From the IMG/VR virus record IMGVR_UViG_3300012286_000299, positions 109,277 to 173,276 of that record: a stretch of 64,000 bases of DNA, one strand, 5' to 3'. Positions within the stretch are counted from its first letter, which is position 1. Each line of letters begins with the position of its first letter. The translations under genes were made by a program, and so were the position numbers. Below the pieces are notes generated by a model. That model saw only the letters and a program-made list of their open reading frames with translations. It was not told the DNA's origin and searched no databases. Below are positions 50,474 to 64,000 of this stretch, in pieces. The DNA is from a virus (Duplodnaviria > Heunggongvirae > Uroviricota > Caudoviricetes).

Positions 50474-50656
50474 ATGCCTCAAAAATATTATCAAGTACTG
50501 TTAAAAACAGGAAAAACACACCCATCACTTTATATTAATCTTCAAACAGCAATTAAAAAAGTAGGAGTAGAAAATATAAAAGAAATCAAAGAAATTAGAG
50601 CAGAATTAGTTAATGCCAAGTACAACGAAATAGTAGGAACAATCAATATAGAATAG
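50474..50656 (+). CDS. hypothetical protein
   Basis: The track frame 50429 (TTG inside the terminator) was trimmed to the ATG at 50474 (MPQKYYQ). Confidence 0.55.
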   Translation: MPQKYYQVLLKTGKTHPSLYINLQTAIKKVGVENIKEIKEIRAELVNAKYNEIVGTINIE

Positions 50657-50657
50657 T

Positions 50658-50798
50658 ATGTCTAAAAACTCAGCAAAATCAAATTACGAACAATTAATGG
50701 CATGGTTACCAACATTGAATGCACCAAAATTAAAAGTAGAACAATCTTCTACTAAGTTTTCAAAATCTACATATTACAAAGAAAAAGGTGTAAAGTAA
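50658..50798 (+). CDS. hypothetical 46-aa protein (below cutoff)
   Basis: Translated by hand: MSKNSAKSNYEQLMAWLP... Starts 2 nt after the upstream stop. Confidence 0.4.
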   Translation: MSKNSAKSNYEQLMAWLPTLNAPKLKVEQSSTKFSKSTYYKEKGVK

Positions 50799-50910
50799 TA
50801 TAAAATATTAATATTTATAGGTATAGTGTCGGACCTATAATATAAAATATTAATTTAAAGCTTATGGTGAGTAGAGAGTCCGACCTCGAAAACCTAAGCT
50901 TTTATTTTTT

Positions 50911-51546
50911 ATGGAAACCAAGGAATGTAAAGTTTGTAAAAATGAAAAAACATTAAATAATTTTAGTAAAAATCAAAAATCTATTGATGGGTTACATTAT
51001 AAATGTAAGGAATGTGTTAAAGAATATAATAAACATCATTACCAAAATAATGAGGAATCTATTAAAAATTATCACCAAAAATGGAGAGAAGATAATTTTA
51101 GTTATTTTAAAGATTACTATCAAAATAATGAGGAATACCTTAAAGGTAAAAATAAAGATTGGAGAGAAAATAATAAGGAAATGTTTAAAAATTATCAAAA
51201 AAACTATTCTAAATATAGGTTACAAAATGATCCTGTTTTTAAATTCAAATTTAATGTTAGAAATTTAATCAAGGGGTCTTTTAAAAGAGCTTGTAATGGT
51301 TTATTTCCTAAAACAGCAAAATCTATAGATATATTAGGATGTAATTTTGAATATTTTATTCAACATATACAATCTCAATTTACAGAAGGTATGACTTTAG
51401 AAAATTATGGTAAATGGCATTTAGACCATATTATACCCATATCAAAAGCACAAACCGAGGAAGATATTATAAAATTAAATCATTATACTAATTTTCAACC
51501 CTTATGGGCTATTGATAATTTAAAAAAAGGAAATAAAATTAAATAA
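50911..51546 (+). CDS. HNH homing endonuclease (free-standing), paralogue of ORF 13540
   Basis: CKVCKNEKTLNNF...CKEC, then WHLDHIIPIS...NFQPLWAIDNLKKGNK. Preceded by a 110-nt repeat- and hairpin-rich spacer. Confidence 0.8.
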   Translation: METKECKVCKNEKTLNNFSKNQKSIDGLHYKCKECVKEYNKHHYQNNEESIKNYHQKWREDNFSYFKDYYQNNEEYLKGKNKDWRENNKEMFKNYQKNYSKYRLQNDPVFKFKFNVRNLIKGSFKRACNGLFPKTAKSIDILGCNFEYFIQHIQSQFTEGMTLENYGKWHLDHIIPISKAQTEEDIIKLNHYTNFQPLWAIDNLKKGNKIK

Positions 51547-51553
51547 ACAACTA

Positions 51554-51730
51554 ATGACTGAAAGAAAACAAATTATTCAGCAAGTAAAAGAGTTAGGTAT
51601 CAAAACTGATAAACCTGCTCATATGTGCACTACATCTTATCTTAAAGGGTTATTACCTAAAGAAGAAGTTAAACAAGAAGAAGTTAAAATTGGGTTTTTT
51701 AAGAAGGTTTTAAGAGGATTAGGCTTTTAA
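51554..51730 (+). CDS. 58-aa protein with a HeH/SAP-like N-terminus (below cutoff), paralogous to the N-terminus of ORF 59038
   Basis: IIQQVKELGIKTDKPAHMCTTSYLKGLL against IIAEVKKLGLTTEKPAHQCKTDYLQQVL. Confidence 0.55.
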   Translation: MTERKQIIQQVKELGIKTDKPAHMCTTSYLKGLLPKEEVKQEEVKIGFFKKVLRGLGF

Positions 51731-51750
51731 AGCCTTTCTTCGTATATTAA
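51720..51750 (+). promoter_or_regulatory. promoter core TTCGTATATTAA (TAG at -33)
   Basis: Core at 51739-51750. Precedes ORF 51778. Confidence 0.55.
51721..51735 (+). terminator. short hairpin
   Basis: AGGCTT TTA AAGCCT followed by TTCTT. Confidence 0.45.
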
Positions 51751-51777
51751 AGCATTATTAATTTAAAAATAAAGGTT

Positions 51778-52575
51778 ATGAGTTTAAAAGCATTATCAAA
51801 AGGGGAATTAGCAGCATTAGCTCCTCAAACATTCAATCATGAAATCGGTTCTAATTTAACTGATAAGTATGTTCATATTCCAACTGATACCATAGTTGAT
51901 GATATGGAAGCGTTAGGTTGGTTTCCGTATGATGTAAAAACAGTTAGAGCAAGAAAGAAAAATGCTCAAACTGCTAAACATTTAATTCAGTTTTTTAACC
52001 CAAATATTGTTATTAATAACGAAGAAGGTGAAGCTGATATGCACCCAACACTATTACTTATCAATTCACATGATGGCTCTACAGCGGTTAGATTTGAAAT
52101 GGGTGTGTTTAGAATGATTTGTGAAAATGGTTTAGTAATCAAATCACAGGATTTCGGTGGATTCAGAATGAGACACATGGGTTATACCTTTGAAGATTTA
52201 CGTCAGTACATTAATCAATTGGTTGAAACACTACCAACTGTAGTTGCTAACCTGAATAAGTTTTCACAAGTATTAATGACACCTGAGCAACAACACGATT
52301 TCGCTGTTAAAGCAGTTGCAGCTCGTTTTGGTGAAGATAAACAATTGTCAGATGAGGCTATTAAAGATTTATTATTAGCAGAACGTAAAGAGGATATTGG
52401 TGATAATGTTTGGGTTGTATTAAATCGTGTTCAAGAAAAATTAACAAGTGGTGGTTTTAGTTACTTGGGTGTTAAAGGTAAACCAAGAAAAGCACGAGCT
52501 GTTAAAAATTTCACACAGGATGTTGAAATGAACTCCAAATTGTGGGAATTAGCTGAAACATATTTAATTAACTAA
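51778..52575 (+). CDS. DUF932-family protein
   Basis: LLLINSHDGSTAVRFEMGVFRMICENGLV. Confidence 0.7.
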   Translation: MSLKALSKGELAALAPQTFNHEIGSNLTDKYVHIPTDTIVDDMEALGWFPYDVKTVRARKKNAQTAKHLIQFFNPNIVINNEEGEADMHPTLLLINSHDGSTAVRFEMGVFRMICENGLVIKSQDFGGFRMRHMGYTFEDLRQYINQLVETLPTVVANLNKFSQVLMTPEQQHDFAVKAVAARFGEDKQLSDEAIKDLLLAERKEDIGDNVWVVLNRVQEKLTSGGFSYLGVKGKPRKARAVKNFTQDVEMNSKLWELAETYLIN

Positions 52576-52580
52576 TAATA

Positions 52581-52602
52581 AAGGGCCTGGAATAGGGCCC
52601 TT
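52581..52602 (+). terminator. hairpin terminator
   Basis: AAGGGCC ... GGCCCTT followed by TAAATTTT. Confidence 0.65.
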
Positions 52603-52623
52603 TAAATTTTCTTCGTATATTTA
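52593..52623 (+). promoter_or_regulatory. promoter core TTCGTATATTTA (TAG at -33)
   Basis: Core at 52612-52623. Precedes denV. Confidence 0.55.
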
Positions 52624-52637
52624 ATAAAATAAAGGTT

Positions 52638-53075
52638 ATGACAAGAATTAATGCATTCATACCAGTTGAGGATTTATCAAACAAACATTTGATAGCTGAA
52701 CACAGAGAGATAAAACGTATACCTAATCACGTAGCTAAACATTTTAGTAAAATGTCTCTATCAAAAATACCTAAACAATTTACGCTTAATACTGGTCACG
52801 TTACTTTCTTCTTTGATAAAGGGCAATTTACCTATGAAAGGTATAAGCAGCTTTATGAAGAGTGTAAAAAAAGAGGGTTCAATATCACTTATTATGGACA
52901 TGCTTGGGATGTTTATAAAGATAAACCTGATGTTTGGAATAAAGATTTAAACGTAACATCACAAGAAAAAATACGCATACAAACCCTAATTAAAGATAGA
53001 ATTAGGAGTAATGAAAAAATAGCCCTTGAAAAAAAGTTAGCAAAAAAGTTAAGTAAATCTATTTTGGATTTATAA
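52638..53075 (+). CDS. denV: pyrimidine-dimer DNA glycosylase (T4 endonuclease V family)
   Basis: MTRINAFIPVEDLSNKHLIAEHREIKRIP...GHVTFFFDK...KRGFNI is near-collinear with T4 DenV ([27 protein letters not shown]...GHVTFFYDK...KRGFNI). Confidence 0.95.
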   Translation: MTRINAFIPVEDLSNKHLIAEHREIKRIPNHVAKHFSKMSLSKIPKQFTLNTGHVTFFFDKGQFTYERYKQLYEECKKRGFNITYYGHAWDVYKDKPDVWNKDLNVTSQEKIRIQTLIKDRIRSNEKIALEKKLAKKLSKSILDL

Positions 53076-53094
53076 AATAATCTTCGTATATTTA
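53064..53094 (+). promoter_or_regulatory. promoter, TTG-N20-TATATTTA
   Basis: TTG at 53064-53066. Precedes ORF 53117. Confidence 0.65.
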
Positions 53095-53116
53095 ATTATA
53101 ATTAAAAATAAAGGTT

Positions 53117-53350
53117 ATGACATCACAAATGAATGAATACCATACTACTTTAAATAAGGTAGAAGAAATTATCACAATGTTAAGAAGTTTAACTCATAAA
53201 GGTGATTGTGTTGATGGAGAGACAATGCAATACATACTTGAACAGGTAGGTATGCAAGACCAAATGTTAAGACAACTAATGATGTCTATGCCTTATGATG
53301 AGGTTGAGTACATAATGGAAGAAAGAGCAATCTTTGAAAACAATAAGTAA
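53117..53350 (+). CDS. hypothetical protein
   Basis: ORF track. Confidence 0.6.
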   Translation: MTSQMNEYHTTLNKVEEIITMLRSLTHKGDCVDGETMQYILEQVGMQDQMLRQLMMSMPYDEVEYIMEERAIFENNK

Positions 53351-53625
53351 TGATAGTAGAACTATACACAATAGCATTTCCACATAATGGGGAAATAGTG
53401 TCTGAATTACACACATTCGATTCAGAAGATGAAAGTGATTTATTTGCTGTAATAGAGTATTTGGAAGAAGATGGAATTGATAGAGATGAAATGTCTCAAG
53501 ATGAATTTGAAACTGCTTGTAGAAAATGGTTATTTGAAGATGAAGTAGCATCTTGGGGACAAGCATTTGTTAATTGCATAGTTGTAACTAAAGAACAGTT
53601 AAAAAGAATTAAAAATATACAATAA
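53350..53625 (+). CDS. hypothetical acidic protein
   Basis: ORF track; TAATG coupling. Confidence 0.6.
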   Translation: MIVELYTIAFPHNGEIVSELHTFDSEDESDLFAVIEYLEEDGIDRDEMSQDEFETACRKWLFEDEVASWGQAFVNCIVVTKEQLKRIKNIQ

Positions 53626-53628
53626 GCT

Positions 53629-53991
53629 ATGGATAATAATTGGAAACCCGGAGACATTGGTATTTGTATCAATACAGGAAAACTACCTCATCAAAAAAAT
53701 GGTACAAACTTACCACCATTAAGACTTAAGGCAGAATATCTAGTTCAAAATGTTTCAAATTGTGGATGTGGTCTAATAGTGTTAGATGTAGGTTTTGGCT
53801 TAACTGACGGCAAAGGTGTAAATTGTAGTTGTGGAGCAACTACATCACCAGCAACCGGAATTAGATGGATAGCAGCTGAAAGATTAGTTAAGAAACAAAC
53901 TAAAAGTGAAATTGAATCGCAAATTGAAGAAGCAGTTGCTAATGAAAATTATGAGTTAGCTCCGGAATTAACAAAAAAATTAGAACAATAA
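53629..53991 (+). CDS. hypothetical protein with a UVR-like C-terminal motif
   Basis: ENYELAPELTKKLEQ. Confidence 0.6.
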   Translation: MDNNWKPGDIGICINTGKLPHQKNGTNLPPLRLKAEYLVQNVSNCGCGLIVLDVGFGLTDGKGVNCSCGATTSPATGIRWIAAERLVKKQTKSEIESQIEEAVANENYELAPELTKKLEQ

Positions 53992-53997
53992 AAGGTT

Positions 53998-54396
53998 ATG
54001 AAAAGAGTAATAGTTAAGTACAAAGATAGTGAACAAACACTAATTTATCACATTGTTAGTTTTAAAAACGACAAACGTCAAATTCTAGTTGAGGATGTAA
54101 AAGAATTCTTAGCAAACCCAAGAGTAGAATCATACGAAATCATAGACATGTCAGGGCGATCATCGAATTCTGATGGTGAAGGTAAAGTATACGAATCGAA
54201 GTACGAACGGGAAAATAATAACTTACCTAAAATAATCGCTAATGAGGTAATACAAGTTGCTACATCATTAAAAGGTTGTACTAAGGAAACCATTGATAAA
54301 TGGAACCAACATCTTGATTTTGACTTACATGAAAAGTTAAATGGTGAATACGGTTTTACAGGCGCCAAAAGATTATATAATATCTTTGGATTGTAA
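53998..54396 (+). CDS. hypothetical protein
   Basis: ORF track. Confidence 0.6.
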   Translation: MKRVIVKYKDSEQTLIYHIVSFKNDKRQILVEDVKEFLANPRVESYEIIDMSGRSSNSDGEGKVYESKYERENNNLPKIIANEVIQVATSLKGCTKETIDKWNQHLDFDLHEKLNGEYGFTGAKRLYNIFGL

Positions 54397-54416
54397 AATA
54401 TAACTTCGTATATTAA
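54386..54416 (+). promoter_or_regulatory. promoter, TTG-N20-TATATTAA
   Basis: TTG at 54386-54388. Precedes the small ORF 54438. Confidence 0.65.
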
Positions 54417-54437
54417 AGCATAATTAAAATATAAATT

Positions 54438-54551
54438 ATGAAAGATTTTGCAGATTGCGGGTTTTATTTTGCAATGGGATGTTGTCTCTTTGCTTGTGGT
54501 GTAATGGTGAGTGCACTAATTTTTAGAATGTTTAAAGATTTATTTAGATAA
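54438..54551 (+). CDS. 37-aa Cys-rich membrane peptide (below cutoff)
   Basis: Promoter-driven. MKDFADCGFYFAMGCCLFACGVMVSALIFRMFKDLFR. Confidence 0.5.
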   Translation: MKDFADCGFYFAMGCCLFACGVMVSALIFRMFKDLFR

Positions 54552-54553
54552 TT

Positions 54554-54670
54554 ATGAGTTTAGTAAGTAATTGTTGTGGTGCGTATTCAGAATATGCTGA
54601 GGACATAGACATTTGTCCTGATTGTCTTGAACATTGTGAATTCGAAGATGATGAAGAAGATGAAGATTAA
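54554..54670 (+). CDS. 38-aa Cys-rich acidic peptide (below cutoff)
   Basis: MSLVSNCCGAYSEYAEDIDICPDCLEHCEFEDDEEDED. Confidence 0.45.
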   Translation: MSLVSNCCGAYSEYAEDIDICPDCLEHCEFEDDEEDED

Positions 54671-54676
54671 ATAAAT

Positions 54677-54707
54677 TTGTTTTATTAAAATTTACTTAGT
54701 ATATTAA
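54677..54707 (+). promoter_or_regulatory. promoter, TTG-N20-TATATTAA (TTAG variant)
   Basis: TTG at 54677-54679. Precedes ORF 54730. Confidence 0.6.
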
Positions 54708-54729
54708 ATCATAATTAAAATAATAAGTT

Positions 54730-54933
54730 ATGTTTAAAACGGAAAAAGCAAGAGATTTATTTAGTCAATTATTGGATGTTAATTGGAAAATTGACAATAA
54801 AGAATATCGTTCACCTGAAGAACGAATTGAATTGAATGCCCAATACCGTAAGTTATATGATGAACTTATGTTAGAGATGGGTACAGAAGAGTTCACCAAA
54901 TTCATGGAAATGGGTCACAAATTGTTTAATTAA
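54730..54933 (+). CDS. hypothetical protein
   Basis: ORF track. Confidence 0.6.
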   Translation: MFKTEKARDLFSQLLDVNWKIDNKEYRSPEERIELNAQYRKLYDELMLEMGTEEFTKFMEMGHKLFN

Positions 54934-54943
54934 AATAAAGGTT

Positions 54944-55132
54944 ATGATATTACAGGTAATTAACACCAAAAAGGAAAAACACAATCAAATTCGTACAACT
55001 AAGGAAACTTTATTTCAAGACCTTAAAACTCAAGGTTGGGCAGTCCAAGATTGTAAAGTAACAGAACTAAATGAGGCTTTAGTAAACACTGTATATCGTG
55101 GTACTGATGGTAAAAATTCATTAAAACGTTAA
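54944..55132 (+). CDS. hypothetical protein
   Basis: ORF track. Confidence 0.55.
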   Translation: MILQVINTKKEKHNQIRTTKETLFQDLKTQGWAVQDCKVTELNEALVNTVYRGTDGKNSLKR

Positions 55133-55135
55133 AAT

Positions 55136-55288
55136 ATGGTAGTATTATTAGCACAACTTGTATTAATGGGTATAAATTTATATCTAGCAAAAGTACAAAC
55201 AGAACAGGGTAGAAATCCAGCAATACAATATTTTGTTGCAGGAATGTGTTTTATGGGTGCAATTGATGCACTTATTAAATTACTTTAG
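55136..55288 (+). CDS. 50-aa membrane peptide (below cutoff)
   Basis: MVVLLAQLVLMGINLYLAK...FVAGMCFMGAIDALIKLL. Confidence 0.45.
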   Translation: MVVLLAQLVLMGINLYLAKVQTEQGRNPAIQYFVAGMCFMGAIDALIKLL

Positions 55289-55297
55289 TAAGGCAAT

Positions 55298-55366
55298 AGT
55301 CAGGTAGTGTAATGGTAGCACCCGGAGGTCACACTTCTAGAACAGGTTCGAATCCTGTCCTGACTA
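55298..55366 (+). tRNA. tRNA-like element 1 (69 nt, non-canonical; possible pseudo-tRNA, loop GUCACAC would read CAC/Val)
   Basis: Good acceptor stem AGTCAGG/CCTGACT, D arm GTGT-AATGGTA-GCAC and T arm ACAGG-TTCGAAT-CCTGT. Only 20 nt remain for position 26, the anticodon arm and the variable loop, and the best stem needs 2 G-U pairs and a C-A mismatch. No encoded CCA. Confidence 0.45.
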
Positions 55367-55367
55367 C
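55344..55367 (+). repeat. 24-nt exact direct repeat (copy 1): AGGTTCGAATCCTGTCCTGACTAC
   Basis: Identical to 55560-55583. It is the T arm plus 3' acceptor of both tRNA-like elements. Confidence 0.95.
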
Positions 55368-55482
55368 AAAGTAATGCCTGGCGAAGTTGTCAAAACCGGG
55401 ATGAAGCAGAATTGTAAATAAAACACGCGAGTGTATAATGACAGATGGGATACACAAAAGTTACAATTAGAATTACTTAAAC

Positions 55483-55582
55483 AGTCAGGTGGCACTGAAG
55501 GTAGAGTGCTCCATAAAATAAGCAATAAGTGGTAATATGGTACCAATACTTATAGCCTTAGGTTCGAATCCTGTCCTGACTA
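55483..55582 (+). tRNA. tRNA-like element 2 (100 nt) with a long internal hairpin in place of a normal anticodon/variable region
   Basis: Same acceptor stem and T loop as element 1. D arm GCAC-TGAAGGTAGA-GTGC (type-II-like). Local positions 40-74 (55522-55556) fold into a ~13-bp interrupted hairpin (ATAAGT/ACTTAT plus TGGTA/TACCA). No encoded CCA. Confidence 0.4.
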
Positions 55583-55583
55583 C
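55560..55583 (+). repeat. 24-nt exact direct repeat (copy 2)
   Basis: See 55344-55367. Confidence 0.95.
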
Positions 55584-55592
55584 TATAACAAT

Positions 55593-55615
55593 ATAAGTGT
55601 TTCATAACCACTTAT
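55593..55615 (+). terminator. hairpin after tRNA-like element 2
   Basis: ATAAGTG tttcataac CACTTAT followed by TATTTTT. Confidence 0.5.
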
Positions 55616-55637
55616 TATTTTTAATTATGCCCGTAAT

Positions 55638-55655
55638 TAGCCCCGAAAGGGGCTA
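55638..55655 (+). terminator. hairpin terminator
   Basis: TAGCCCC GAAA GGGGCTA followed by TTACTTTATTT. Confidence 0.65.
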
Positions 55656-55664
55656 TTACTTTAT

Positions 55665-55695
55665 TTGGAGGGTATAAATTAAATTCGTATATTTA
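55665..55695 (+). promoter_or_regulatory. cassette promoter (TTGGAGGGTATAAATTAAATTCGTATATTT)
   Basis: Extended right-arm consensus. Precedes ORF 55712. Confidence 0.6.
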
Positions 55696-55711
55696 TTACA
55701 AATAAAATAAA

Positions 55712-55849
55712 ATGAAAGTAGTACAATTCACATTACAGGAAAGATGGGCTGCATCAAAGCACATGGTTCAAAAGAACAAGAAAAAATACAATAGGGAAAA
55801 AGATAAAAGAGAAAATAGGGAGGCTGGTAAGTCTCCTTACTTCATTTAA
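55712..55849 (+). CDS. 45-aa basic peptide (below cutoff)
   Basis: Promoter-driven. MKVVQFTLQERWAASKHMVQKNKKKYNREKDKRENREAGKSPYFI. Confidence 0.45.
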   Translation: MKVVQFTLQERWAASKHMVQKNKKKYNREKDKRENREAGKSPYFI

Positions 55850-55878
55850 TATATTTATAAGGGTCCTTATTTAGTTTC

Positions 55879-55909
55879 TTTGAGTGTTTAAAACTAATTC
55901 GTATATTAA
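55879..55909 (+). promoter_or_regulatory. cassette promoter
   Basis: TTTGAGTG...AATTCGTATATTAAAGTATAATTAA. Precedes ORF 55933. Confidence 0.6.
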
Positions 55910-55932
55910 AGTATAATTAAAAAATAAAGGTT

Positions 55933-56202
55933 ATGAATAAAATTGAAATAGAAGGTAAAGTTTATGAGCAAATTGAACAAAAATCTTCTAATAATGGGGT
56001 AAGTAAAAAAATGCTAGGAATGTTAGCTATGGCACAAGCTATGTATAACTTATCTTTTGGTGGTTCCAATTATAGCCGACAAAGACCCTCTGTAAATATA
56101 GTTGAAGAGTTCCGACTAATACAACAAAAGAAAAGTAAATTAAATCGTTCTGATAGGGACTGGGTTATATATCAATTTAATAGAAATTTTAAAGAAGTAT
56201 AA
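55933..56202 (+). CDS. hypothetical protein
   Basis: ORF track; own promoter. Confidence 0.65.
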   Translation: MNKIEIEGKVYEQIEQKSSNNGVSKKMLGMLAMAQAMYNLSFGGSNYSRQRPSVNIVEEFRLIQQKKSKLNRSDRDWVIYQFNRNFKEV

Positions 56203-56206
56203 GGTT

Positions 56207-56524
56207 ATGAATTTAGATTTTGACTTAATTAGAAGTGAGGTATTAGTAGCACGTAAGGAAGATAGTCCTAACGATTGCCCTTCCACAAATGTTGAAGAAC
56301 TTTCTGAAAATATAAAATATTTACTTGAAGAGCTTCCTATAATGAATTTATCTAATATTGAAGACCTCGATGAGGATGAATTCAGTTTATTTGATGATTA
56401 CTTTGAGGATGAACAATTCTGGATATTGATTTGGAAAGGCAGAACATTCTTTGTAGATACTCAAGGGTATTCCTATGCAAGATATTGTGGTGAATTAATT
56501 AATTATAATGAAGTTGAGGGTTAA
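56207..56524 (+). CDS. hypothetical acidic protein
   Basis: ORF track. Confidence 0.6.
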   Translation: MNLDFDLIRSEVLVARKEDSPNDCPSTNVEELSENIKYLLEELPIMNLSNIEDLDEDEFSLFDDYFEDEQFWILIWKGRTFFVDTQGYSYARYCGELINYNEVEG

Positions 56525-56543
56525 AATTAACTTAGTATATTAA
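56513..56543 (+). promoter_or_regulatory. cassette promoter (TTAG variant)
   Basis: TTGAGGGTTAAAATTAACTTAGTATATTAAAGTATATTAA. Precedes ORF 56567. Confidence 0.6.
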
Positions 56544-56566
56544 AGTATATTAATAATTAAAAAGTT

Positions 56567-56761
56567 ATGGCAAGTAAGATATTAATGTATAATGATGTAA
56601 CCGGGGAAGTAGTAGCTACTACTGCTAGTCTTGAAGGGCATAAGTTTGCAAACTTCATTGAAAAAGGATTTAAACCTATTTGTATAGCTTACCCTGTAAG
56701 TTACTCAGTAGCTGTAGAATCCTATACTGAAGAAAAACATGTAAGGTTAACTAAAAAATAA
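56567..56761 (+). CDS. hypothetical protein
   Basis: ORF track; own promoter. Confidence 0.6.
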   Translation: MASKILMYNDVTGEVVATTASLEGHKFANFIEKGFKPICIAYPVSYSVAVESYTEEKHVRLTKK

Positions 56762-56765
56762 GATT

Positions 56766-56927
56766 ATGACACAATTTGAAAAAAATTCTTTATCAATAGC
56801 AAAAGAACTAATTGAATTAAAATTTAAGGTTCAAGTTATTGCAATAGATTTTGAAGATGGTTCGGGAAGAAATTTTATTGTAACTACAAAGGATAATCCT
56901 TTAAAGAAAAGATTTGTTAAATTTTAA
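56766..56927 (+). CDS. 53-aa protein (below cutoff)
   Basis: MTQFEKNSLSIAKELIELKF... Shares the MTQFE start with the next ORF. Confidence 0.45.
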   Translation: MTQFEKNSLSIAKELIELKFKVQVIAIDFEDGSGRNFIVTTKDNPLKKRFVKF

Positions 56928-56935
56928 ATAAGGTT

Positions 56936-57100
56936 ATGACACAGTTTGAAGAAAACAACCCTAAGGAATTAAAGAAATTTATTTCCGAGTTAGACAATCT
57001 TATAGATGAATTTCACCCTAACATATATCTAATTGATGATGTGTTTAAAGGGGTAGAAATTATAAGAAACGCTATTAAGGAAGTGATTGCTGAGAAATAA
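56936..57100 (+). CDS. 54-aa protein (below cutoff)
   Basis: MTQFEENNPKELKKFISELDNLIDEF... Confidence 0.45.
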   Translation: MTQFEENNPKELKKFISELDNLIDEFHPNIYLIDDVFKGVEIIRNAIKEVIAEK

Positions 57101-57113
57101 CTTCGTATATTTA
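57083..57113 (+). promoter_or_regulatory. cassette promoter
   Basis: AACTTCGTATATTTAAGCATAATTAA. Precedes ORF 57137. Confidence 0.6.
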
Positions 57114-57136
57114 AGCATAATTAAAATAATAAAGTT

Positions 57137-57382
57137 ATGGCAAGAGGAGAAGGAACAATTACCTATGATGGTGTAGAAATTGATATTGAATTCCAATATG
57201 AACCTTTAGTAAGAGGTAGAATGTGGATGGACAATGGTGACCCAGGTTACCCTGATGAAGGAGGTGAATTCTATATTGAAAAAGCATTCATTGGAGGGCA
57301 AGATGTAACTGATTTACTTGGTGAAGACAAGCTAGAATCAATAGCTGAAGCCTATCAAGAAAAACATGGTGGGGAATATTAA
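57137..57382 (+). CDS. hypothetical protein
   Basis: ORF track; own promoter. Confidence 0.65.
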   Translation: MARGEGTITYDGVEIDIEFQYEPLVRGRMWMDNGDPGYPDEGGEFYIEKAFIGGQDVTDLLGEDKLESIAEAYQEKHGGEY

Positions 57383-57391
57383 TTCCCTGTC

Positions 57392-57422
57392 GTGTTTATT
57401 ATAAATTTACCTCGTATATTAA
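57392..57422 (+). promoter_or_regulatory. cassette promoter (CTCG variant)
   Basis: TTACCTCGTATATTAAAGCATAATTAA. Precedes ORF 57447. Confidence 0.55.
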
Positions 57423-57446
57423 AGCATAATTAAAATAAGAAAAGTT

Positions 57447-57842
57447 ATGAGTGCTGAATCAATTAAAATTGCATTTATTAAATTAAATGCTGCTGATAAA
57501 ATTAAAGTAAGGGCTTATATAAAATCCCTTAGTGAATCTTATAAGAAACCACCCTTAAAAGTTAAGGAATATAAAGTTAATACTATAACGGGTGCACTCA
57601 AACATACCCTATCCTCAATGGGGTGTGATATTGAAAATAAATATACATTTTCAGATAATCGTACCATTGGAATCAGTGTTAAAATATGTAACTTAAAACT
57701 TACAAAATCCCAGGAACAAGAAGTGAAATCTAAAATGGAAAACTTGGGGTACACTTACCACAGTATAAAAAGACCTTCACATAATCATGGTTCACCATAT
57801 TATAGAGATACTTTTAAGGGTACAAGATTTCATTTTTCTTAA
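57447..57842 (+). CDS. hypothetical protein
   Basis: ORF track; own promoter. Confidence 0.65.
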   Translation: MSAESIKIAFIKLNAADKIKVRAYIKSLSESYKKPPLKVKEYKVNTITGALKHTLSSMGCDIENKYTFSDNRTIGISVKICNLKLTKSQEQEVKSKMENLGYTYHSIKRPSHNHGSPYYRDTFKGTRFHFS

Positions 57843-57855
57843 AATAGTTAAGGTA

Positions 57856-57886
57856 TAGTGAGGTATAAATTAACTTCGTATATTAA
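57856..57886 (+). promoter_or_regulatory. cassette promoter
   Basis: GTGAGGTATAAATTAACTTCGTATATTAAGGCATAATTAA. Precedes ORF 57914. Confidence 0.65.
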
Positions 57887-57913
57887 GGCATAATTAATTA
57901 AAACATTAATATA

Positions 57914-58222
57914 ATGGATTACGGAAAAAAGTATTTCACTAACAACAATAAATTTGGTGTTGGTAGAGTTGAGACAATGAGGTTAGTTAATCAACCTGAA
58001 ATTTTGAATTTCATAACTCACAATCCTGGAAGAACAGAACTACAAATTATGGAGCAGTTGTATAATTACCCTAATTATGTAGGTATATTTCAGGAAAGTA
58101 ATAAAAAGTATGCTGACCGATTAAGAGCATTACTTCATAGTGGGAAAATATCCCGAGTTAAAGCTAGAACCATAGATGGGCCTCGTTTTATATATTTCTC
58201 AATATATGAGAAAAAGGCATAG
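57914..58222 (+). CDS. hypothetical protein
   Basis: ORF track; own promoter. Confidence 0.65.
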   Translation: MDYGKKYFTNNNKFGVGRVETMRLVNQPEILNFITHNPGRTELQIMEQLYNYPNYVGIFQESNKKYADRLRALLHSGKISRVKARTIDGPRFIYFSIYEKKA

Positions 58223-58250
58223 TAAGGTATAAATTAACTTCGTATATTAA
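58220..58250 (+). promoter_or_regulatory. cassette promoter
   Basis: GTAAGGTATAAATTAACTTCGTATATTAAGGCATAATTAA. Precedes ORF 58275. Confidence 0.65.
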
Positions 58251-58274
58251 GGCATAATTAAAATATTAAATGTT

Positions 58275-58571
58275 ATGAGTAAGTATGTAGAATTAATGAA
58301 TAACCCACCTAAATTAACTATTAAGGAGGGTGCTCGAGAAGTAGTGTTTAAAACCATAGCAAGTATGTGTGATAATGTTCACTACATTACATTCAAGAAA
58401 AATAATGAAGGTGACTTCAAAATGAGCGGTAATGGGTTTTCACTCTCAAACTGGGGAATGAAACATACACCTCAAGAGATTGAGTGGGAAGCAGATGAAA
58501 ACCTATGGGGAGGGGTTATTGCAATGGTTAATTCAGGTTATGAAGTTATTGAATCTGTAGTAAGTAGATAA
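58275..58571 (+). CDS. hypothetical protein
   Basis: ORF track; own promoter. Confidence 0.65.
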   Translation: MSKYVELMNNPPKLTIKEGAREVVFKTIASMCDNVHYITFKKNNEGDFKMSGNGFSLSNWGMKHTPQEIEWEADENLWGGVIAMVNSGYEVIESVVSR

Positions 58572-58578
58572 TAAGGCA

Positions 58579-58609
58579 TTTTGAGGTATAAATTAACTTC
58601 GTATATTAA
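58579..58609 (+). promoter_or_regulatory. cassette promoter
   Basis: TTGAGGTATAAATTAACTTCGTATATTAAAGTATAATTAA. Precedes ORF 58638. Confidence 0.65.
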
Positions 58610-58637
58610 AGTATAATTAAAATAAATAATTAAGGTT

Positions 58638-58952
58638 ATGACAAAAACACAAACAGTAGACTTATTAAAAAGTCAATTGCCAGGATTTTATTCCGCAGAA
58701 CAAGTAATCAATCTAATTGAGAAGATGGAGGACACTCCAAAAATTACTCAGGAACACATTAAAGAAATTGCAAGAAGTATCATGAATGATATTGAAAGCG
58801 AGGCACAAAGAGGTCACATTGTCAGTAATGACGAGGTTGAATTTGACTTAAGACACAGAGAAATTGAAGTGACTGACGTTCCAATTAACTTTGATACCAT
58901 CAGAGAGTGTATTGAAGAAGGTCTATCAAATGCCTTTGAAGAAGAAGAATAA
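58638..58952 (+). CDS. hypothetical acidic protein
   Basis: ORF track; own promoter. Confidence 0.65.
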   Translation: MTKTQTVDLLKSQLPGFYSAEQVINLIEKMEDTPKITQEHIKEIARSIMNDIESEAQRGHIVSNDEVEFDLRHREIEVTDVPINFDTIRECIEEGLSNAFEEEE

Positions 58953-58961
58953 ATCAAGGTA

Positions 58962-58992
58962 GTTGAGGGACAAAAATAAATTCGTATATTTA
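58962..58992 (+). promoter_or_regulatory. cassette promoter
   Basis: TTGAGGGACAAAAATAAATTCGTATATTTAAAACATATTAA. Precedes ORF 59038. Confidence 0.6.
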
Positions 58993-59037
58993 AAACATAT
59001 TAATAATAAAAAAGTTTAATTTTAAAATTTAAAGGTT

Positions 59038-59499
59038 ATGAACAGAATTGAAATCATTGCAGAAGTAAAAAAATTAGGTTTAACAACAGAAAAACCTGCG
59101 CACCAATGTAAAACTGATTACTTACAACAAGTATTAGATGCACACTATGCAACTAGTGTTGAAGTAAAACAGAAAGGTAGACCTGTGAATGAAAACAGTG
59201 AACGCCAAAAACGACTTGCTGAATTAGAAGCAAAACGTGAAGCAGGTGAACTACGTAAAGGTAGACCAGTAGTGGAAGGTAGTGCTCGTCAAGTGAGATT
59301 ATCACTTAAAGGTACATTGCCATTAGGTAGAAAACCAAATCCTGAAAGCGCTGCTTACAAACGTAAAATGGAATTGGAAGCAAAACGTGCTGCGGGTGAA
59401 CTAAAAAGAGGTAGACCAGCACAAGTAAAAGAAGCAGCTGAACCAGTAGCAGCTCAAGTAGAAGCGCCTGCAGCAGCAGAGCCACAAACTGAAGTATAA
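59038..59499 (+). CDS. AT-hook-type DNA-binding protein with a HeH/SAP-like N-terminus and an internal repeat
   Basis: GRP cores x4 (KGRPVNE, KGRPVVE, LGRKPNP, KRGRPAQ). Repeated ELEAKR(E/A)AGEL(R/K)(K/R)GRP. Ala/Pro-rich tail. Visibly GC-richer. Confidence 0.7.
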   Translation: MNRIEIIAEVKKLGLTTEKPAHQCKTDYLQQVLDAHYATSVEVKQKGRPVNENSERQKRLAELEAKREAGELRKGRPVVEGSARQVRLSLKGTLPLGRKPNPESAAYKRKMELEAKRAAGELKRGRPAQVKEAAEPVAAQVEAPAAAEPQTEV

Positions 59500-59516
59500 G
59501 AATTAATTACAGAAAA

Positions 59517-59541
59517 GGGACATGACGATTAGTTATGTCCC
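59517..59541 (+). terminator. hairpin after ORF 59038
   Basis: GGGACAT gacgattagtt ATGTCCC followed by TTACTTT. Confidence 0.55.
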
Positions 59542-59568
59542 TTACTTTAACCCTTAATCAGTATATAT

Positions 59569-59805
59569 TTGAAAAGACATACAGTAATTAGCAAAAAATA
59601 TGTTGAAACCTACAAAAATTACCCTAAAGCAAAACCCAAACCACAATATATAATTGGGTGTGTTTATTATGGAAGAAACCGCTCAAATCATTTAAAATTA
59701 GGCATACTAACCTTATTTGGTGATAGGGTATCAACTTTAAAAACTAAAGATGGTAAATTGGTTAAAGTTAAAAATAACACTCTAAAAAGCGCTCAAACAG
59801 GGTAG
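59569..59805 (+). CDS. hypothetical basic protein (start codon doubtful)
   Basis: The ORF track uses a TTG that is part of a perfect TATATTTG (-7-type) box at 59564-59571. There is no in-frame ATG. Confidence 0.35.
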   Translation: MKRHTVISKKYVETYKNYPKAKPKPQYIIGCVYYGRNRSNHLKLGILTLFGDRVSTLKTKDGKLVKVKNNTLKSAQTG

Positions 59806-59835
59806 TTTGAGGTATAATTTAACTTCGTATATTAA
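59805..59835 (+). promoter_or_regulatory. cassette promoter
   Basis: TTGAGGTATAATTTAACTTCGTATATTAAAGTATAATTAA. Precedes ORF 59860. Confidence 0.65.
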
Positions 59836-59859
59836 AGTATAATTAATAAATACATTATT

Positions 59860-59982
59860 ATGGTAAAAGTAGTTAAATCAGGCATCACATATTATGAGGT
59901 AAATTTAGGTAGTATATCTCTAATTGCATTTGAACCACAGGAATTAGTTATTAGCAACAGAAAAACCTGCGCACCAATGTAA
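59860..59982 (+). CDS. 40-aa ORF whose 3' end is rewritten by the duplication junction
   Basis: MVKVVKSGITYYEVNLGSISLIAFEPQELVI then SNRKTCAPM-stop. The second copy at 60731 ends RMVNMNISLN-stop. Confidence 0.4.
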   Translation: MVKVVKSGITYYEVNLGSISLIAFEPQELVISNRKTCAPM

Positions 59983-60370
59983 AACTGATTACTTACAACA
60001 AGTATTAGATGCACACTATGCAACTAGTGTTGAAGTAAAACAGAAAGGTAGACCTGTGAATGAAAACAGTGAACGCCAAAAACGACTTGCTGAATTAGAA
60101 GCAAAACGTGAAGCAGGTGAACTACGTAAAGGTAGACCAGTAGTGGAAGGTAGTGCTCGTCAAGTGAGATTATCACTTAAAGGTACATTGCCATTAGGTA
60201 GAAAACCAAATCCTGAAAGCGCTGCTTACAAACGTAAAATGGAATTGGAAGCAAAACGTGCTGCGGGTGAACTAAAAAGAGGTAGACCAGCACAAGTAAA
60301 AGAAGCAGCTGAACCAGTAGCAGCTCAAGTAGAAGCGCCTGCAGCAGCAGAGCCACAAACTGAAGTATAA
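59948..60370 (+). pseudogene. 5'-truncated duplicate of the AT-hook gene (lacks the first 15 codons, promoter and ATG)
   Basis: The frame opens after a TAG at 59945-59947. The ORF track could only start it at a GTG (60056). Sequence is identical to 59077-59499. Confidence 0.6.
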
Positions 60371-60387
60371 GAATTAATTACAGAAAA

Positions 60388-60412
60388 GGGACATGACGAT
60401 TAGTTATGTCCC
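60388..60412 (+). terminator. hairpin (duplicate of 59517-59541)
   Basis: Identical sequence at +871. Confidence 0.55.
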
Positions 60413-60439
60413 TTACTTTAACCCTTAATCAGTATATAT

Positions 60440-60676
60440 TTGAAAAGACATACAGTAATTAGCAAAAAATATGTTGAAACCTACAAAAATTACCCTAAAG
60501 CAAAACCCAAACCACAATATATAATTGGGTGTGTTTATTATGGAAGAAACCGCTCAAATCATTTAAAATTAGGCATACTAACCTTATTTGGTGATAGGGT
60601 ATCAACTTTAAAAACTAAAGATGGTAAATTGGTTAAAGTTAAAAATAACACTCTAAAAAGCGCTCAAACAGGGTAG
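60440..60676 (+). CDS. duplicate of ORF 59569 (same start-codon doubt)
   Basis: Identical 78-aa translation. Confidence 0.35.
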   Translation: MKRHTVISKKYVETYKNYPKAKPKPQYIIGCVYYGRNRSNHLKLGILTLFGDRVSTLKTKDGKLVKVKNNTLKSAQTG

Positions 60677-60706
60677 TTTGAGGTATAATTTAACTTCGTA
60701 TATTAA
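60676..60706 (+). promoter_or_regulatory. cassette promoter (duplicate)
   Basis: Identical to 59805-59835. Precedes ORF 60731. Confidence 0.65.
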
Positions 60707-60730
60707 AGTATAATTAATAAATACATTATT

Positions 60731-60856
60731 ATGGTAAAAGTAGTTAAATCAGGCATCACATATTATGAGGTAAATTTAGGTAGTATATCTCTAATTGCAT
60801 TTGAACCACAGGAATTAGTTATTAGAATGGTAAACATGAATATATCACTAAACTAA
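60731..60856 (+). CDS. 41-aa ORF, presumably the ancestral version of ORF 59860
   Basis: Promoter-driven; below the ORF-track cutoff. Confidence 0.45.
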   Translation: MVKVVKSGITYYEVNLGSISLIAFEPQELVIRMVNMNISLN

Positions 60857-60864
60857 TAAAGGTT

Positions 60865-61128
60865 ATGACGGAAAAATCAACTCAACAAGCGGCAAACGTT
60901 GCCAAAATAGGATTAATTATTTTATGGGCGGCATTCATGTATTCCCTAACATCATGTGGTTCACAATGTTCAAGAACAAAACGTTATTGGAGAAACCATA
61001 GATGTGTCGAGGTGAAAACCCAAAAATCAATCAACAGGGCAAGAAGATCATTGGATAGAAGAATACAATCAGCACAACAACAGTATGCTATTGTCAACAA
61101 TGAAATCATAATGTTTGAAAATTATTAG
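60865..61128 (+). CDS. lipoprotein / membrane-anchored basic protein
   Basis: IGLIILWAAFMYSLTSCGS (signal peptide plus lipobox). Confidence 0.6.
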   Translation: MTEKSTQQAANVAKIGLIILWAAFMYSLTSCGSQCSRTKRYWRNHRCVEVKTQKSINRARRSLDRRIQSAQQQYAIVNNEIIMFENY

Positions 61129-61133
61129 TGGTC

Positions 61134-61164
61134 GTTTGAGGTATAAATTTACTTCGTATATTTA
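61134..61164 (+). promoter_or_regulatory. cassette promoter
   Basis: TTGAGGTATAAATTTACTTCGTATATTTAAGCATATTAA. Precedes ORF 61193. Confidence 0.65.
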
Positions 61165-61192
61165 AGCATATTAATAATTAAAATATAATGTT

Positions 61193-61375
61193 ATGAAATT
61201 TAATGGTTTTGAAAAGTACTTAATTATACAAGGGTTAAATATAGTTAAGGAACAAGCTAAAACTGAAATACGTGAAGCTATAGCCAAAGGTGAAATGCCT
61301 ATTATGACGGAAGATTTCATTGATATAACTGTGAAAGAAGCCCTAGACAAATTAAATAAATTAACTGTAGAATAA
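61193..61375 (+). CDS. hypothetical protein
   Basis: ORF track; own promoter. Confidence 0.6.
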   Translation: MKFNGFEKYLIIQGLNIVKEQAKTEIREAIAKGEMPIMTEDFIDITVKEALDKLNKLTVE

Positions 61376-61377
61376 TT

Positions 61378-61563
61378 ATGGTAGCTAAAGTAAGAGAATA
61401 CTTCAGACAAAACTATGGACACGTGTACTTTGATGACATTAGTGATTCATTTATTGAAGAATACATGTCACGTTCCTACGTAGTCTCATTATCATTTGAA
61501 ATGCAAATGGACTGTTTGTATGATGCAGTCATGTCACAATCAATGGTTGATTATGACGAATAA
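61378..61563 (+). CDS. hypothetical protein
   Basis: ORF track. Confidence 0.55.
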   Translation: MVAKVREYFRQNYGHVYFDDISDSFIEEYMSRSYVVSLSFEMQMDCLYDAVMSQSMVDYDE

Positions 61564-61579
61564 AAAATTAATTATGGTA

Positions 61580-61610
61580 TGTGAGGGTTAAATATAACCT
61601 CGTATATTTA
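61580..61610 (+). promoter_or_regulatory. cassette promoter (CTCG variant)
   Basis: GTGAGGGTTAAATATAACCTCGTATATTTAAGTATAATTAA. Precedes ORF 61635. Confidence 0.6.
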
Positions 61611-61634
61611 AGTATAATTAATAAATAAAACATC

Positions 61635-61901
61635 ATGACAAAAGAGGAATTTATAGCAGGAACACCGTTCTATGTAGGTAAAAAAAGATACAGAGGTGAA
61701 TCAACACACTATTATGACCCAAAAATAGGTTGTATTTGTAAACAAAATAGATCTTCGGCCGATGAAAGAATTGTACTTGAAGATTATGCTTGCAATATTA
61801 AAAAAGTAGGTAGATTAGGGTTCGAAGGGTTCACTCATGTAATGAATAAACAAGTGAATGTTAAATATAAATTTGAGCATTTGAGTGTATTTGAGGGTTA
61901 A
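61635..61901 (+). CDS. hypothetical protein
   Basis: ORF track; own promoter. Confidence 0.65.
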   Translation: MTKEEFIAGTPFYVGKKRYRGESTHYYDPKIGCICKQNRSSADERIVLEDYACNIKKVGRLGFEGFTHVMNKQVNVKYKFEHLSVFEG

Positions 61902-61920
61902 GATTAGCTTCGTATATTAA
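61890..61920 (+). promoter_or_regulatory. cassette promoter
   Basis: TTGAGGGTTAAGATTAGCTTCGTATATTAAGGTATAATTAA. Overlaps the 3' end of ORF 61635. Precedes ORF 61951. Confidence 0.65.
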
Positions 61921-61950
61921 GGTATAATTAATAATAAAAACATAAAGGTT

Positions 61951-62316
61951 ATGAAAAAAGTTGTAAAAAAAGCATCACAGGTTAAGGTATCTATTACCCA
62001 CAAAACATTAATGGTGAATTTCGAGTTCCCAATTGTAGTAGGACAAGTTAAGATAATTGCTATTGGTCTAGCTCATGTTTATAAGGGTGATGAATCAGGA
62101 CAAATTGAAGCAGATATCGATTTTATGGATTATGGGGAAACAACCTATATGGACATGCCTGTTGAGGGGTATGAGGGTGTGAAAAAGTTAAAGGAAATGC
62201 ACAAAGGATTTGGTATTGACTTAGGTACCCTAATTGATAATGAATTCAATAAGGTTGTAACAGAGGAATTCAAAACCGAATTCCTAAAACAATTCGACGT
62301 TAGAATGTTTGAATAA
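61951..62316 (+). CDS. hypothetical protein
   Basis: ORF track; own promoter. Confidence 0.65.
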   Translation: MKKVVKKASQVKVSITHKTLMVNFEFPIVVGQVKIIAIGLAHVYKGDESGQIEADIDFMDYGETTYMDMPVEGYEGVKKLKEMHKGFGIDLGTLIDNEFNKVVTEEFKTEFLKQFDVRMFE

Positions 62317-62323
62317 TAAAAAT

Positions 62324-62342
62324 AAGCCCCGGAATGGGGCTT
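62324..62342 (+). terminator. hairpin terminator
   Basis: AAGCCCC GGAAT GGGGCTT. Confidence 0.6.
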
Positions 62343-62365
62343 ATAAATTTTACTTCGTATATTTA
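62335..62365 (+). promoter_or_regulatory. cassette promoter
   Basis: TTTTACTTCGTATATTTAAGTATAATTAA. Precedes ORF 62388. Confidence 0.6.
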
Positions 62366-62387
62366 AGTATAATTAAAAATTAAGGTT

Positions 62388-62705
62388 ATGTTAAATACAA
62401 CTTATTTAGGAAGAGAAATCACTAGACGTGATAATGTTAAAGTAGAAGGTACATTCCAATCATTTTATGAGGCATCAAAACGTTTGATGGGGATGGGTTA
62501 TATAATGGGAAGCATGTGTGGAGATGAACCAATAGGGTTTGCCGATGCAGACAAATACGAGTATATTGCCAAATGGAGAAACATTGACCCGAGCGATAGA
62601 GTAAAAGTGGACGGGGTAATGATCAGTAGTGACTGGAGAGAGGGTAGTGTTGAAATAATATGGTTTAAAGAGCCATTAAATAAGGCAGTAGCGGGTATAA
62701 ATTAA
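62388..62705 (+). CDS. hypothetical protein
   Basis: ORF track; own promoter. Confidence 0.65.
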   Translation: MLNTTYLGREITRRDNVKVEGTFQSFYEASKRLMGMGYIMGSMCGDEPIGFADADKYEYIAKWRNIDPSDRVKVDGVMISSDWREGSVEIIWFKEPLNKAVAGIN

Positions 62706-62718
62706 CTTCGTATATTGA
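62688..62718 (+). promoter_or_regulatory. cassette promoter
   Basis: GCGGGTATAAATTAACTTCGTATATTGAGGTATAATTAA. Overlaps the 3' end of ORF 62388. Precedes ORF 62743. Confidence 0.6.
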
Positions 62719-62742
62719 GGTATAATTAAAAAAGTAAACGTT

Positions 62743-63087
62743 ATGGTAAAAGAAATTACTGCAATAGATAAACTGATTGCTATTGAGGAAATGCTTGTTA
62801 AAATGAGGTATGACACTACAGGAATGAGTGTGAGCCAAGCACTGGAAATAATGAAGGCAACGGTAAAGGCTATTGATAAAGCAAAATTACCCTCAAACAC
62901 GATTTACCCTATGACACGAGACGATTTATACAAAATAATGGATTCAGAAAACTATACGGTGGACGAGATCAAAGATTCAGTGTATATGGGGAACAGAATA
63001 ACCACTATATTGGAGAATGAGGACGTGGAGATAGATGACGAACAGGTAAAGGTGTTGGTGGTAGAGTACCAAAATGCTAGAGCATAG
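62743..63087 (+). CDS. hypothetical protein
   Basis: ORF track; own promoter. Confidence 0.65.
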   Translation: MVKEITAIDKLIAIEEMLVKMRYDTTGMSVSQALEIMKATVKAIDKAKLPSNTIYPMTRDDLYKIMDSENYTVDEIKDSVYMGNRITTILENEDVEIDDEQVKVLVVEYQNARA

Positions 63088-63231
63088 TAATGTTAAACCA
63101 TTCCAATATCTAAAGATATCGTAATGTGGAAACTTATTCCTAGTATATTGGGGTAACGGACAAATGTTCCGGCGGTAACGCTTAATAGTATAGTTGTATG
63201 TGGAAATTGGGTTAAATTGGGGTGGATAATA

Positions 63232-63256
63232 GGGCAGGGTCTCCGCTCCCCTGCCC
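63232..63256 (+). other. GC-rich 8-bp stem hairpin inside an ORF-free GC-rich spacer
   Basis: GGGCAGGG tctccgctc CCCTGCCC. Confidence 0.7.
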
Positions 63257-63311
63257 CGTTATGGAATAACTTTCCTCCCTACCTCCCTTGTATATACAAT
63301 TTTTAATGGAA

Positions 63312-63342
63312 CTAGGTGGAACAAATCAACTTCGTATATTAT
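63312..63342 (+). promoter_or_regulatory. cassette promoter
   Basis: CAACTTCGTATATTATAGTATATTAA. Precedes ORF 63371. Confidence 0.6.
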
Positions 63343-63370
63343 AGTATATTAATAATTAAACAACTATATT

Positions 63371-63553
63371 ATGATAAAGTTTGAGGTTTACCCAAGTGTT
63401 AGATTACAAGCACACCAATTGTTAATCAATTCGAACCGTTTGAAAAGTGTATTTTATAATACTGGAAATACTTTCCTAATTGACCCCGTTGATTTACCTC
63501 GTTGTAAGGAAATACTTACCAAACGAATGATTAAATTAAAGGTAGTTAATTAA
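63371..63553 (+). CDS. hypothetical protein
   Basis: ORF track; own promoter. Confidence 0.6.
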   Translation: MIKFEVYPSVRLQAHQLLINSNRLKSVFYNTGNTFLIDPVDLPRCKEILTKRMIKLKVVN

Positions 63554-63557
63554 GGTA

Positions 63558-63588
63558 ATAGGGGAATAAAAATCCCTTCGTATATTAT
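63558..63588 (+). promoter_or_regulatory. cassette promoter
   Basis: TCCCTTCGTATATTATAGTATAATAA. Precedes ORF 63619. Confidence 0.6.
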
Positions 63589-63618
63589 AGTATAATAAAA
63601 AATATAAAATTAAAGGTT

Positions 63619-63855
63619 ATGAAAGCTAAAGTACAAATTAAATCAGTGTTCGAACAAATTGCAGGTAAAGTATTTACCATGACCAATGTTACCCAAGCCA
63701 AAGAGTATATCACTGAATTTATTACCAGTAAAGGTATTGATGGTACCGACAAACAAACCATCGTTAATAACGTTAATAAATGTACCTCAATTGCACAACT
63801 ACAACGTTACGTGTGTAATTCATTATTAATGTATGAGGGTATGGGTATCAGTTAA
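63619..63855 (+). CDS. hypothetical protein
   Basis: ORF track; own promoter. Confidence 0.65.
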   Translation: MKAKVQIKSVFEQIAGKVFTMTNVTQAKEYITEFITSKGIDGTDKQTIVNNVNKCTSIAQLQRYVCNSLLMYEGMGIS

Positions 63856-63885
63856 TACCCCGCTATTACCCACATTCCCACCGCA

Positions 63886-63930
63886 GGGACCCAGGCTTTA
63901 CAGCCCCGGGTCCCTTCTTTGTTTTTCTTT
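63886..63930 (+). terminator. strong GC-rich rho-independent terminator
   Basis: GGGACCC-a-GGCT ttac AGCC-cc-GGGTCCC followed by TTCTTTGTTTTTCTTT. Confidence 0.75.
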
Positions 63931-63940
63931 CCCTTTTCGT

Positions 63941-63961
63941 CCGAATTCGGTCCGCATGCGG
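63941..63961. repeat. two back-to-back perfect 10-bp palindromes
   Basis: CCGAATTCGG (63941-63950) and CCGCATGCGG (63952-63961), separated by one T, in GC-rich DNA. Confidence 0.9.
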
Positions 63962-64000
63962 ATCGGCACGGGTTGCCCACGCGGCGTTGCTGTCCATAAA

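Follow-up and report, generated by a model that had tools for sequence, protein, structure and literature searches.

Does the large genome of the uncultured freshwater phage behind the IMG/VR virus record IMGVR_UViG_3300012286_000299 (Caudoviricetes) truly carry the same 871-bp segment twice in tandem, or was the second copy added when the genome was put together? The segment lies in a stretch of 64,000 nucleotides (positions 109,277 to 173,276 of the record), which was analysed as a whole and is called the window here. Two copies of the 871-nt unit, at 59084-59954 and 59955-60825 of the window on the + strand, are arrayed head to tail, and direct comparison shows 871 identical positions out of 871 with 0 mismatches. 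We lean, with modest confidence, towards an assembly or linearisation artefact as the origin of the second copy, and the phage genome most likely carries the segment only once.

The match run at period 871 is exactly 871 bases long, which leaves zero microhomology at the blunt junction 59954/59955. The junction reads ...GTTATTAG/CAACAGAAAAACC... (in another rendering, GGAATTAGTTATTAG/CAACAGAAAAACCTG), and the outer boundaries read GGTTTAA/CAACAG on the left and GTTATTAG/AATGGT on the right. An A precedes copy 1, where the unit itself closes with G; an A also follows copy 2, where the unit itself opens with C. An earlier sequence-only reading of this DNA had described the perfect identity of the two copies, the lack of microhomology and the flanking bases A/G and A/C, all of which were confirmed by the comparison and the period-871 run. 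The pair is the sole exact repeat longer than 37 nt within the 64-kb window and is not attributable to chance; Tandem Repeats Finder, limited to periods of up to 500, does not list it. Similarity between the flanks of the two breakpoints is at chance level. They have the hexamer AATTAG in common, 6-7 nt upstream, and 6% of random position pairs equal this.

Both boundaries fall inside genes. The left end of the unit is at base 2 of codon 16 in the gene for a 153-aa AT-hook-like protein (59038-59499), and its right end is at base 2 of codon 32 in an open reading frame (ORF) of 41 aa (60731-60856). It contains, in order, the 153-aa gene from codon 16, a terminator hairpin, a 78-aa ORF, a promoter header and 31 codons of the 41-aa ORF. 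The product of the tandem arrangement is without functional logic, namely a truncated gene copy that has no promoter of its own and a small ORF that is frameshifted, and this counts towards an artefact. Homologous recombination between the repeated promoter headers was rejected, since the nearest of them end 56 and 83 nt before the respective boundaries. Insertion of a mobile element was also rejected, as the boundaries lie inside genes that are continuous in relatives. The event had been called illegitimate rather than header-mediated; the boundaries do lie outside the headers, but the balance of evidence tilts towards an artefact over illegitimate recombination, which we consider possible and clearly less probable.

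The single copy is the ancestral state, as alignment to relatives shows. Comparison with related genomes had been suggested as a check, and it shows the stretch once in each of eight related contigs (IMG/VR L002-L005 and JGI L025-L028). At the left boundary L025 and L003 align through without a break. At the right boundary a further relative, L091, which holds just the 3' part of the AT-hook-like gene, aligns unbroken with 60375-61196, over 60825/60826, and its match to copy 1 ends at 59953. It is because relatives run unbroken through the left and the right boundary that the single copy is placed first. Since the 41-aa ORF has 41-aa homologs in four other sources, 60731-60856 is likewise the native form, and the 40-aa ORF that spans the junction is derived from it. 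Exact searches gave no match for the junction and the right-boundary sequence in the IMG/VR collection, and none for the unit end in GTDB genomes.

Exact look-ups trace the proteins of the window to a single JGI/IMG contig of 173,276 nt, and some of them also to the Logan assembly of run ERR3489837. Both copies are present in this deposited contig, as its recorded proteins list the 153-aa protein and a 104-aa truncated form of it separately; the 78-aa protein, the native 41-aa protein and the flanking genes are recorded too. The 40-aa junction ORF is not among them, although its 41-aa twin with the same start is, and a crude dicodon score rates the two about equal (-3.2 for the junction ORF vs -2.1). 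This absence is only suggestive, because a gene caller can simply miss a small ORF. It is matched by a placement of the copies at the contig ends, where no junction ORF would be possible.

Such a placement could arise if the genome assembled as a circle and the graph path stalled from both directions at two branch points in the hypervariable early-gene region. The edge between the two branch points would then be written at both ends of the 173-kb contig. These ends would have become neighbours in one of two ways: the window was cut from a contig that was handled as a circle, or the assembly itself joined them end to end or traversed a loop. In our inference the real DNA does not hold the two copies side by side; they would instead represent the two ends of the contig, or a loop that was traversed too often. 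The absence of any difference over 871 nt, together with a junction that lacks microhomology, speaks for such an origin: arbitrary contig ends give zero microhomology about half the time, and real phage rearrangement junctions, for example in T4, usually lie in short direct repeats.

The locus of the AT-hook-like gene is also a hot spot for assembly breaks with a sharp break point. By our own tally from the homolog tables, six of 23 IMG/VR contigs have one of their ends in this gene or at most 70 nt from it, where about 0.7 was roughly estimated from their lengths. The match begins or ends within 5 nt of the contig end for 12 of 64 JGI contigs, mostly at residue 45. Many metagenome contigs, which come from different samples, share a start at residues 44-47 (KGRPVN), e.g. 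L024, L033, L047, L059, L067, L073, L075, L078 and L091. Contigs of relatives measure 158-173 kb (e.g. 172,779, 168,764, 168,099 and 166,116 nt), and the source contig with its 173,276 nt is within this range; the clustering suggests complete, circularly assembled genomes. Circularly assembled contigs usually end in a self-overlap, and artificial overlaps have been described at SPAdes contig ends (PMC5923482).

Several points weigh against an artefact. Some of them also favour the alternative that the phage DNA itself was duplicated in tandem very recently, a change that would be either fixed or polymorphic; we consider this explanation possible and clearly less probable. The truncated 104-aa copy is recorded from an internal GTG and not as an edge partial, as its internal position in a contig that has both copies would predict; this is weakened as counter-evidence by L091, which has the same GTG start at a real contig edge. 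The 31-aa partial of the small ORF, expectable at the 3' end of the contig, is not among the recorded proteins. An overlap of 871 nt is no usual assembler k (55-141), and a longer overlap needs a whole graph edge to be repeated. For a de Bruijn graph assembler to write the unit twice inside a contig, junction-spanning reads are needed, and copies at the contig ends would be neighbours only after these ends were joined or wrapped, which is an extra supposed step. Real local duplications do exist in this lineage. An older and diverged one in the same genome involves window ORFs 4003-4953 and 5706-6194, which share 53% aa identity with the first 60 residues nearly identical; the DNA segments are 78-96% identical at a spacing of about 1.7 kb, and the duplication extends upstream of both genes. 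The relative L044 (JGI) has two segments of the AT-hook-like gene, 2068-2383 and 3621-3938, which are 88% identical and 1,553 nt (1.55 kb) apart. An ancestral single copy with a derived junction would fit a young event as well. Such a duplication would have arisen by illegitimate recombination or template switching between sister genomes, joining codon 32 of the 41-aa ORF to codon 16 of the AT-hook-like gene. It would double the 78-aa ORF, the terminator and one early promoter, and would set the truncated GRP-repeat copy (GTG at 60056) behind the promoter of the small ORF. It would probably be neutral and short-lived, because homologous recombination collapses direct repeats of 871 bp, and a phage proficient in recombination would not be expected to keep a perfect one stably. 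The junction without microhomology and the unrecorded junction ORF, whose twin was called, speak against it, and so does the self-comparison of about 90 related loci, none of which holds a comparable perfect repeat. For a random event in a genome of about 172 kb, a boundary within the 462-nt gene where contigs tend to end would be a coincidence, and neither an in-frame fusion nor any other plausible benefit results. The sequence-only reading had left a recent event, a population variant and an artefact side by side; the identity on which it built is real, and indirect evidence now inclines somewhat to the last of the three.

An independent assembly is consistent with either origin. The k=31 assembly of ERR3489837 (Logan) is 100% identical to window 11133-25812, 47447-57890 and 61436-62824, and a true repeat would fragment such an assembly between 57,890 and 61,436. 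By exact-protein look-up, none of nine tested proteins between these two positions is recorded in it, among which the look-up of the 78-aa ORF is uninformative, as its TTG start is perhaps translated as L. The contigs recovered by this look-up are flanking only, and none of them runs over a boundary or the junction; no paper was found that mentions this run. Where the window has no repeat the same assembly breaks too, namely at positions 11133, 61436 and 62824 and near 35014. The gap fits a true repeat and, because of these breaks without any repeat, fits equally a region broken by strain variation.

Two further explanations are both very improbable. The virion genome might be linear with the 871 bp as a physical direct repeat at its termini, which were then joined in the record or in the window. 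The exact copies, the sharp boundaries and the location among clustered small early genes that have strong promoters would agree with this; T5- and SPO1-type phages have their long terminal repeats in early-gene regions. Both boundaries, however, cut ORFs that are conserved and continuous in relatives (at codon 16 and at codon 32), and the same kind of genes and promoters continues on the same strand on either side. The replication genes are moreover of T4 type (family B polymerase, clamp loader), and phages with such genes usually package by headful, without fixed ends. Just as remote is the idea that a real duplication marks the first step of a gene-dosage 'accordion' in a wild population under host pressure. 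This would mean more expression of the conserved 78-aa ORF and perhaps an N-terminally truncated GRP-repeat protein, putatively DNA-binding, made from a different early promoter.

Both leading explanations, an assembly artefact and a recent duplication, belong to known kinds, which are the overlap of circular assemblies and the spontaneous tandem duplication in large lytic phages. The terminal self-overlap ('DTR') of circular metagenome contigs likewise has base-perfect copies, blunt boundaries that ignore genes, a contig near the size of a complete genome and a break-prone place. It differs in that a k-mer overlap is far shorter than 871 nt, and in that the copies here are adjacent, so that a joining or wrapping step is required. 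Duplications in the rII region of T4 are likewise of about a kilobase, head to tail, with a novel junction inside genes and an expected instability, in a phage with T4-type replication genes. The classical T4 duplications were genetically selected and their junctions were usually in short direct repeats, whereas the 871-bp repeat has no microhomology and no evident selection. Poxvirus accordions such as the K3L arrays are also tandem copies of a small early-gene segment driven by recombination; unlike them, the present repeat has two copies only, its sole intact duplicate is the 78-aa ORF, and there is no sign of selection.

The biological significance is small under either of the two. If the second copy is an artefact, the practical lesson for contigs of complete-genome size is to inspect their ends before tandem repeats that are perfect and blunt and ignore genes are interpreted in evolutionary terms. 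A real second copy would be another transient tandem duplication in a large lytic phage and a modest marker of reshuffling in small-gene cassettes.

The gene that is cut at the left boundary is preceded by a promoter header at 58959-59037, which lies outside the unit and is single. It belongs to repeat families D1 and D11, has the core TTCGTATATT and possesses a TTGAGG-16-TATATT site. The full-length 153-aa gene that follows is recorded for the source contig as P0154, and its family has 419 homologs at E<=1e-10. In an AlphaFold model the N-terminal part of the protein forms a helix-loop-helix (helices 3-13 and 26-40), and basic repeats that contain GRP come after it; according to the model and the family alignment A1, these are 28-aa units, each made of a GRP loop and a helix. 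There are four GRP/GRK motifs in the protein, and K or R stands directly before three of them. AT-hook proteins likewise have repeated GRP cores in a very basic and largely non-globular protein, but they differ from the 153-aa protein with its 28-aa units of loop and helix, for which no match to the Pfam AT_hook model was found at E<=1. The label 'AT-hook' given by the sequence-only reading is therefore kept as a resemblance of the GRP/GRK cores only. Neither a sequence search nor Foldseek matched the protein to a solved structure, and no function was found for the duplicated genes from PHROGs, Pfam, solved-structure sequences or Foldseek.

The copy of this gene in the second unit encodes 104 aa from a GTG (60056-60370), recorded as P0174, and keeps the GRP repeats without the N-terminal domain. 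Three codons ahead of the junction a stop closes its frame, and the GTG is the earliest start codon thereafter, so the 104 aa are the only possible reading. Mapping of frames and headers agrees with the earlier description of a second gene copy without promoter, ATG and codons 1-15. The gene is followed by a terminator-like hairpin with a 12-bp stem at 59515-59543 and again at 60386-60414 (-19 kcal/mol, z = -4.8). The stem of the spacer hairpin (window 59497-59570) is kept in L002, L003, L025-L028 and L091 through different sequences, GGGACAT, GGGGTATA and GGGGGGTTAA. After it stands a conserved TTAATCAGTATATATTTG, which overlaps the TTG start of the 78-aa ORF.

This 78-aa ORF (59569-59805 and, in copy 2, 60440-60676; recorded as P0172) is the sole gene duplicated intact. 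Full-length homologs with 39-76% aa identity are found directly downstream of the AT-hook-like gene in L002, L003, L004 and L025-L028, and a 79-aa gene is called at its place in L091. The promoter header of the small ORF follows at 59802-59859, with its second copy at 60673-60730, and belongs to repeat families D1 and D3. The ORF starting at 59569 and one promoter had been noticed as duplicated whole, and both indeed occur twice. The junction-spanning ORF of 40 aa (59860-59982) has the tail SNRKTCAPM, its product ending ...ELVISNRKTCAPM, which is the altered C-terminus that had been read for copy 1 of the small ORF. The native 41-aa ORF at 60731-60856 crosses the right boundary, and its 41-aa homologs are P0177-P0179 and L091 629-754. 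The gene next to the repeat on its right side is an 87-aa ORF (60865-61128). L091 has the same order of 41-aa ORF and 87-aa ORF, and an IMG/VR search for relatives of the 87-aa ORF added nothing.

About 30 promoter-like headers of 50-70 nt are distributed over window positions from about 47400 to 63620, with scattered copies from 1731, and from about 52 kb onward a header precedes nearly every small early gene. Their core is CTTCGTATATT(A/T)AAG(T/C)ATAATTAA, or in shorter rendering CTTCGTATATT-AAG-ATAATTAA, often with a TTTG/TTGAGG box about 20 nt upstream, and AAAGGTTATG stands at the start codon.

The window as a whole has 30% G+C, with every gene on the + strand. It encodes a split family B DNA polymerase, clamp loader, GroEL/GroES, ligase, glycosyltransferases and QueE-like and GTP-cyclohydrolase genes, the last two being a pair typical of 7-deazaguanine synthesis. 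Near-identity searches against GenBank phages gave no match with 58-62 kb of the window and a single match with 11-31 kb, a segment of 525 nt that is 90% identical to Flavobacterium phage immuto.

Some minor features were observed elsewhere in the window. At 63856-64000, where it is cut by the window end, the sequence changes abruptly into a non-coding element that is rich in G+C and about 250 nt long. This element is kept at the same position in L002 (4937-5217), L003 (12591-12870), L005 (about 11087-11268) and L006 (about 12177-12287). Its invariants are GCCCACNCGNCGTTGCTGTCC, a perfect hairpin AGATCG-NNAC-GATCT and then CATATATAC motifs. A chimeric join at this end of the window was rejected, as the element recurs in relatives. 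An Rfam search gave no match for it, RNAalifold support is weak with the four sequences, and its candidate roles are those of a non-coding RNA, an origin or a regulatory region. A tRNA-like gene at 55298-55367 scores 44.8 bits to the Rfam tRNA model and was given no anticodon by ARAGORN. The family B DNA polymerase is distributed over two ORFs, 14085-15812 and 16077-17012, with an 87-aa ORF between them. The thymidylate synthase ORF at 6274-7509 encodes 411 aa and covers only about 280 positions of the PHROG profile, and thus appears to carry an insertion of about 130 aa.

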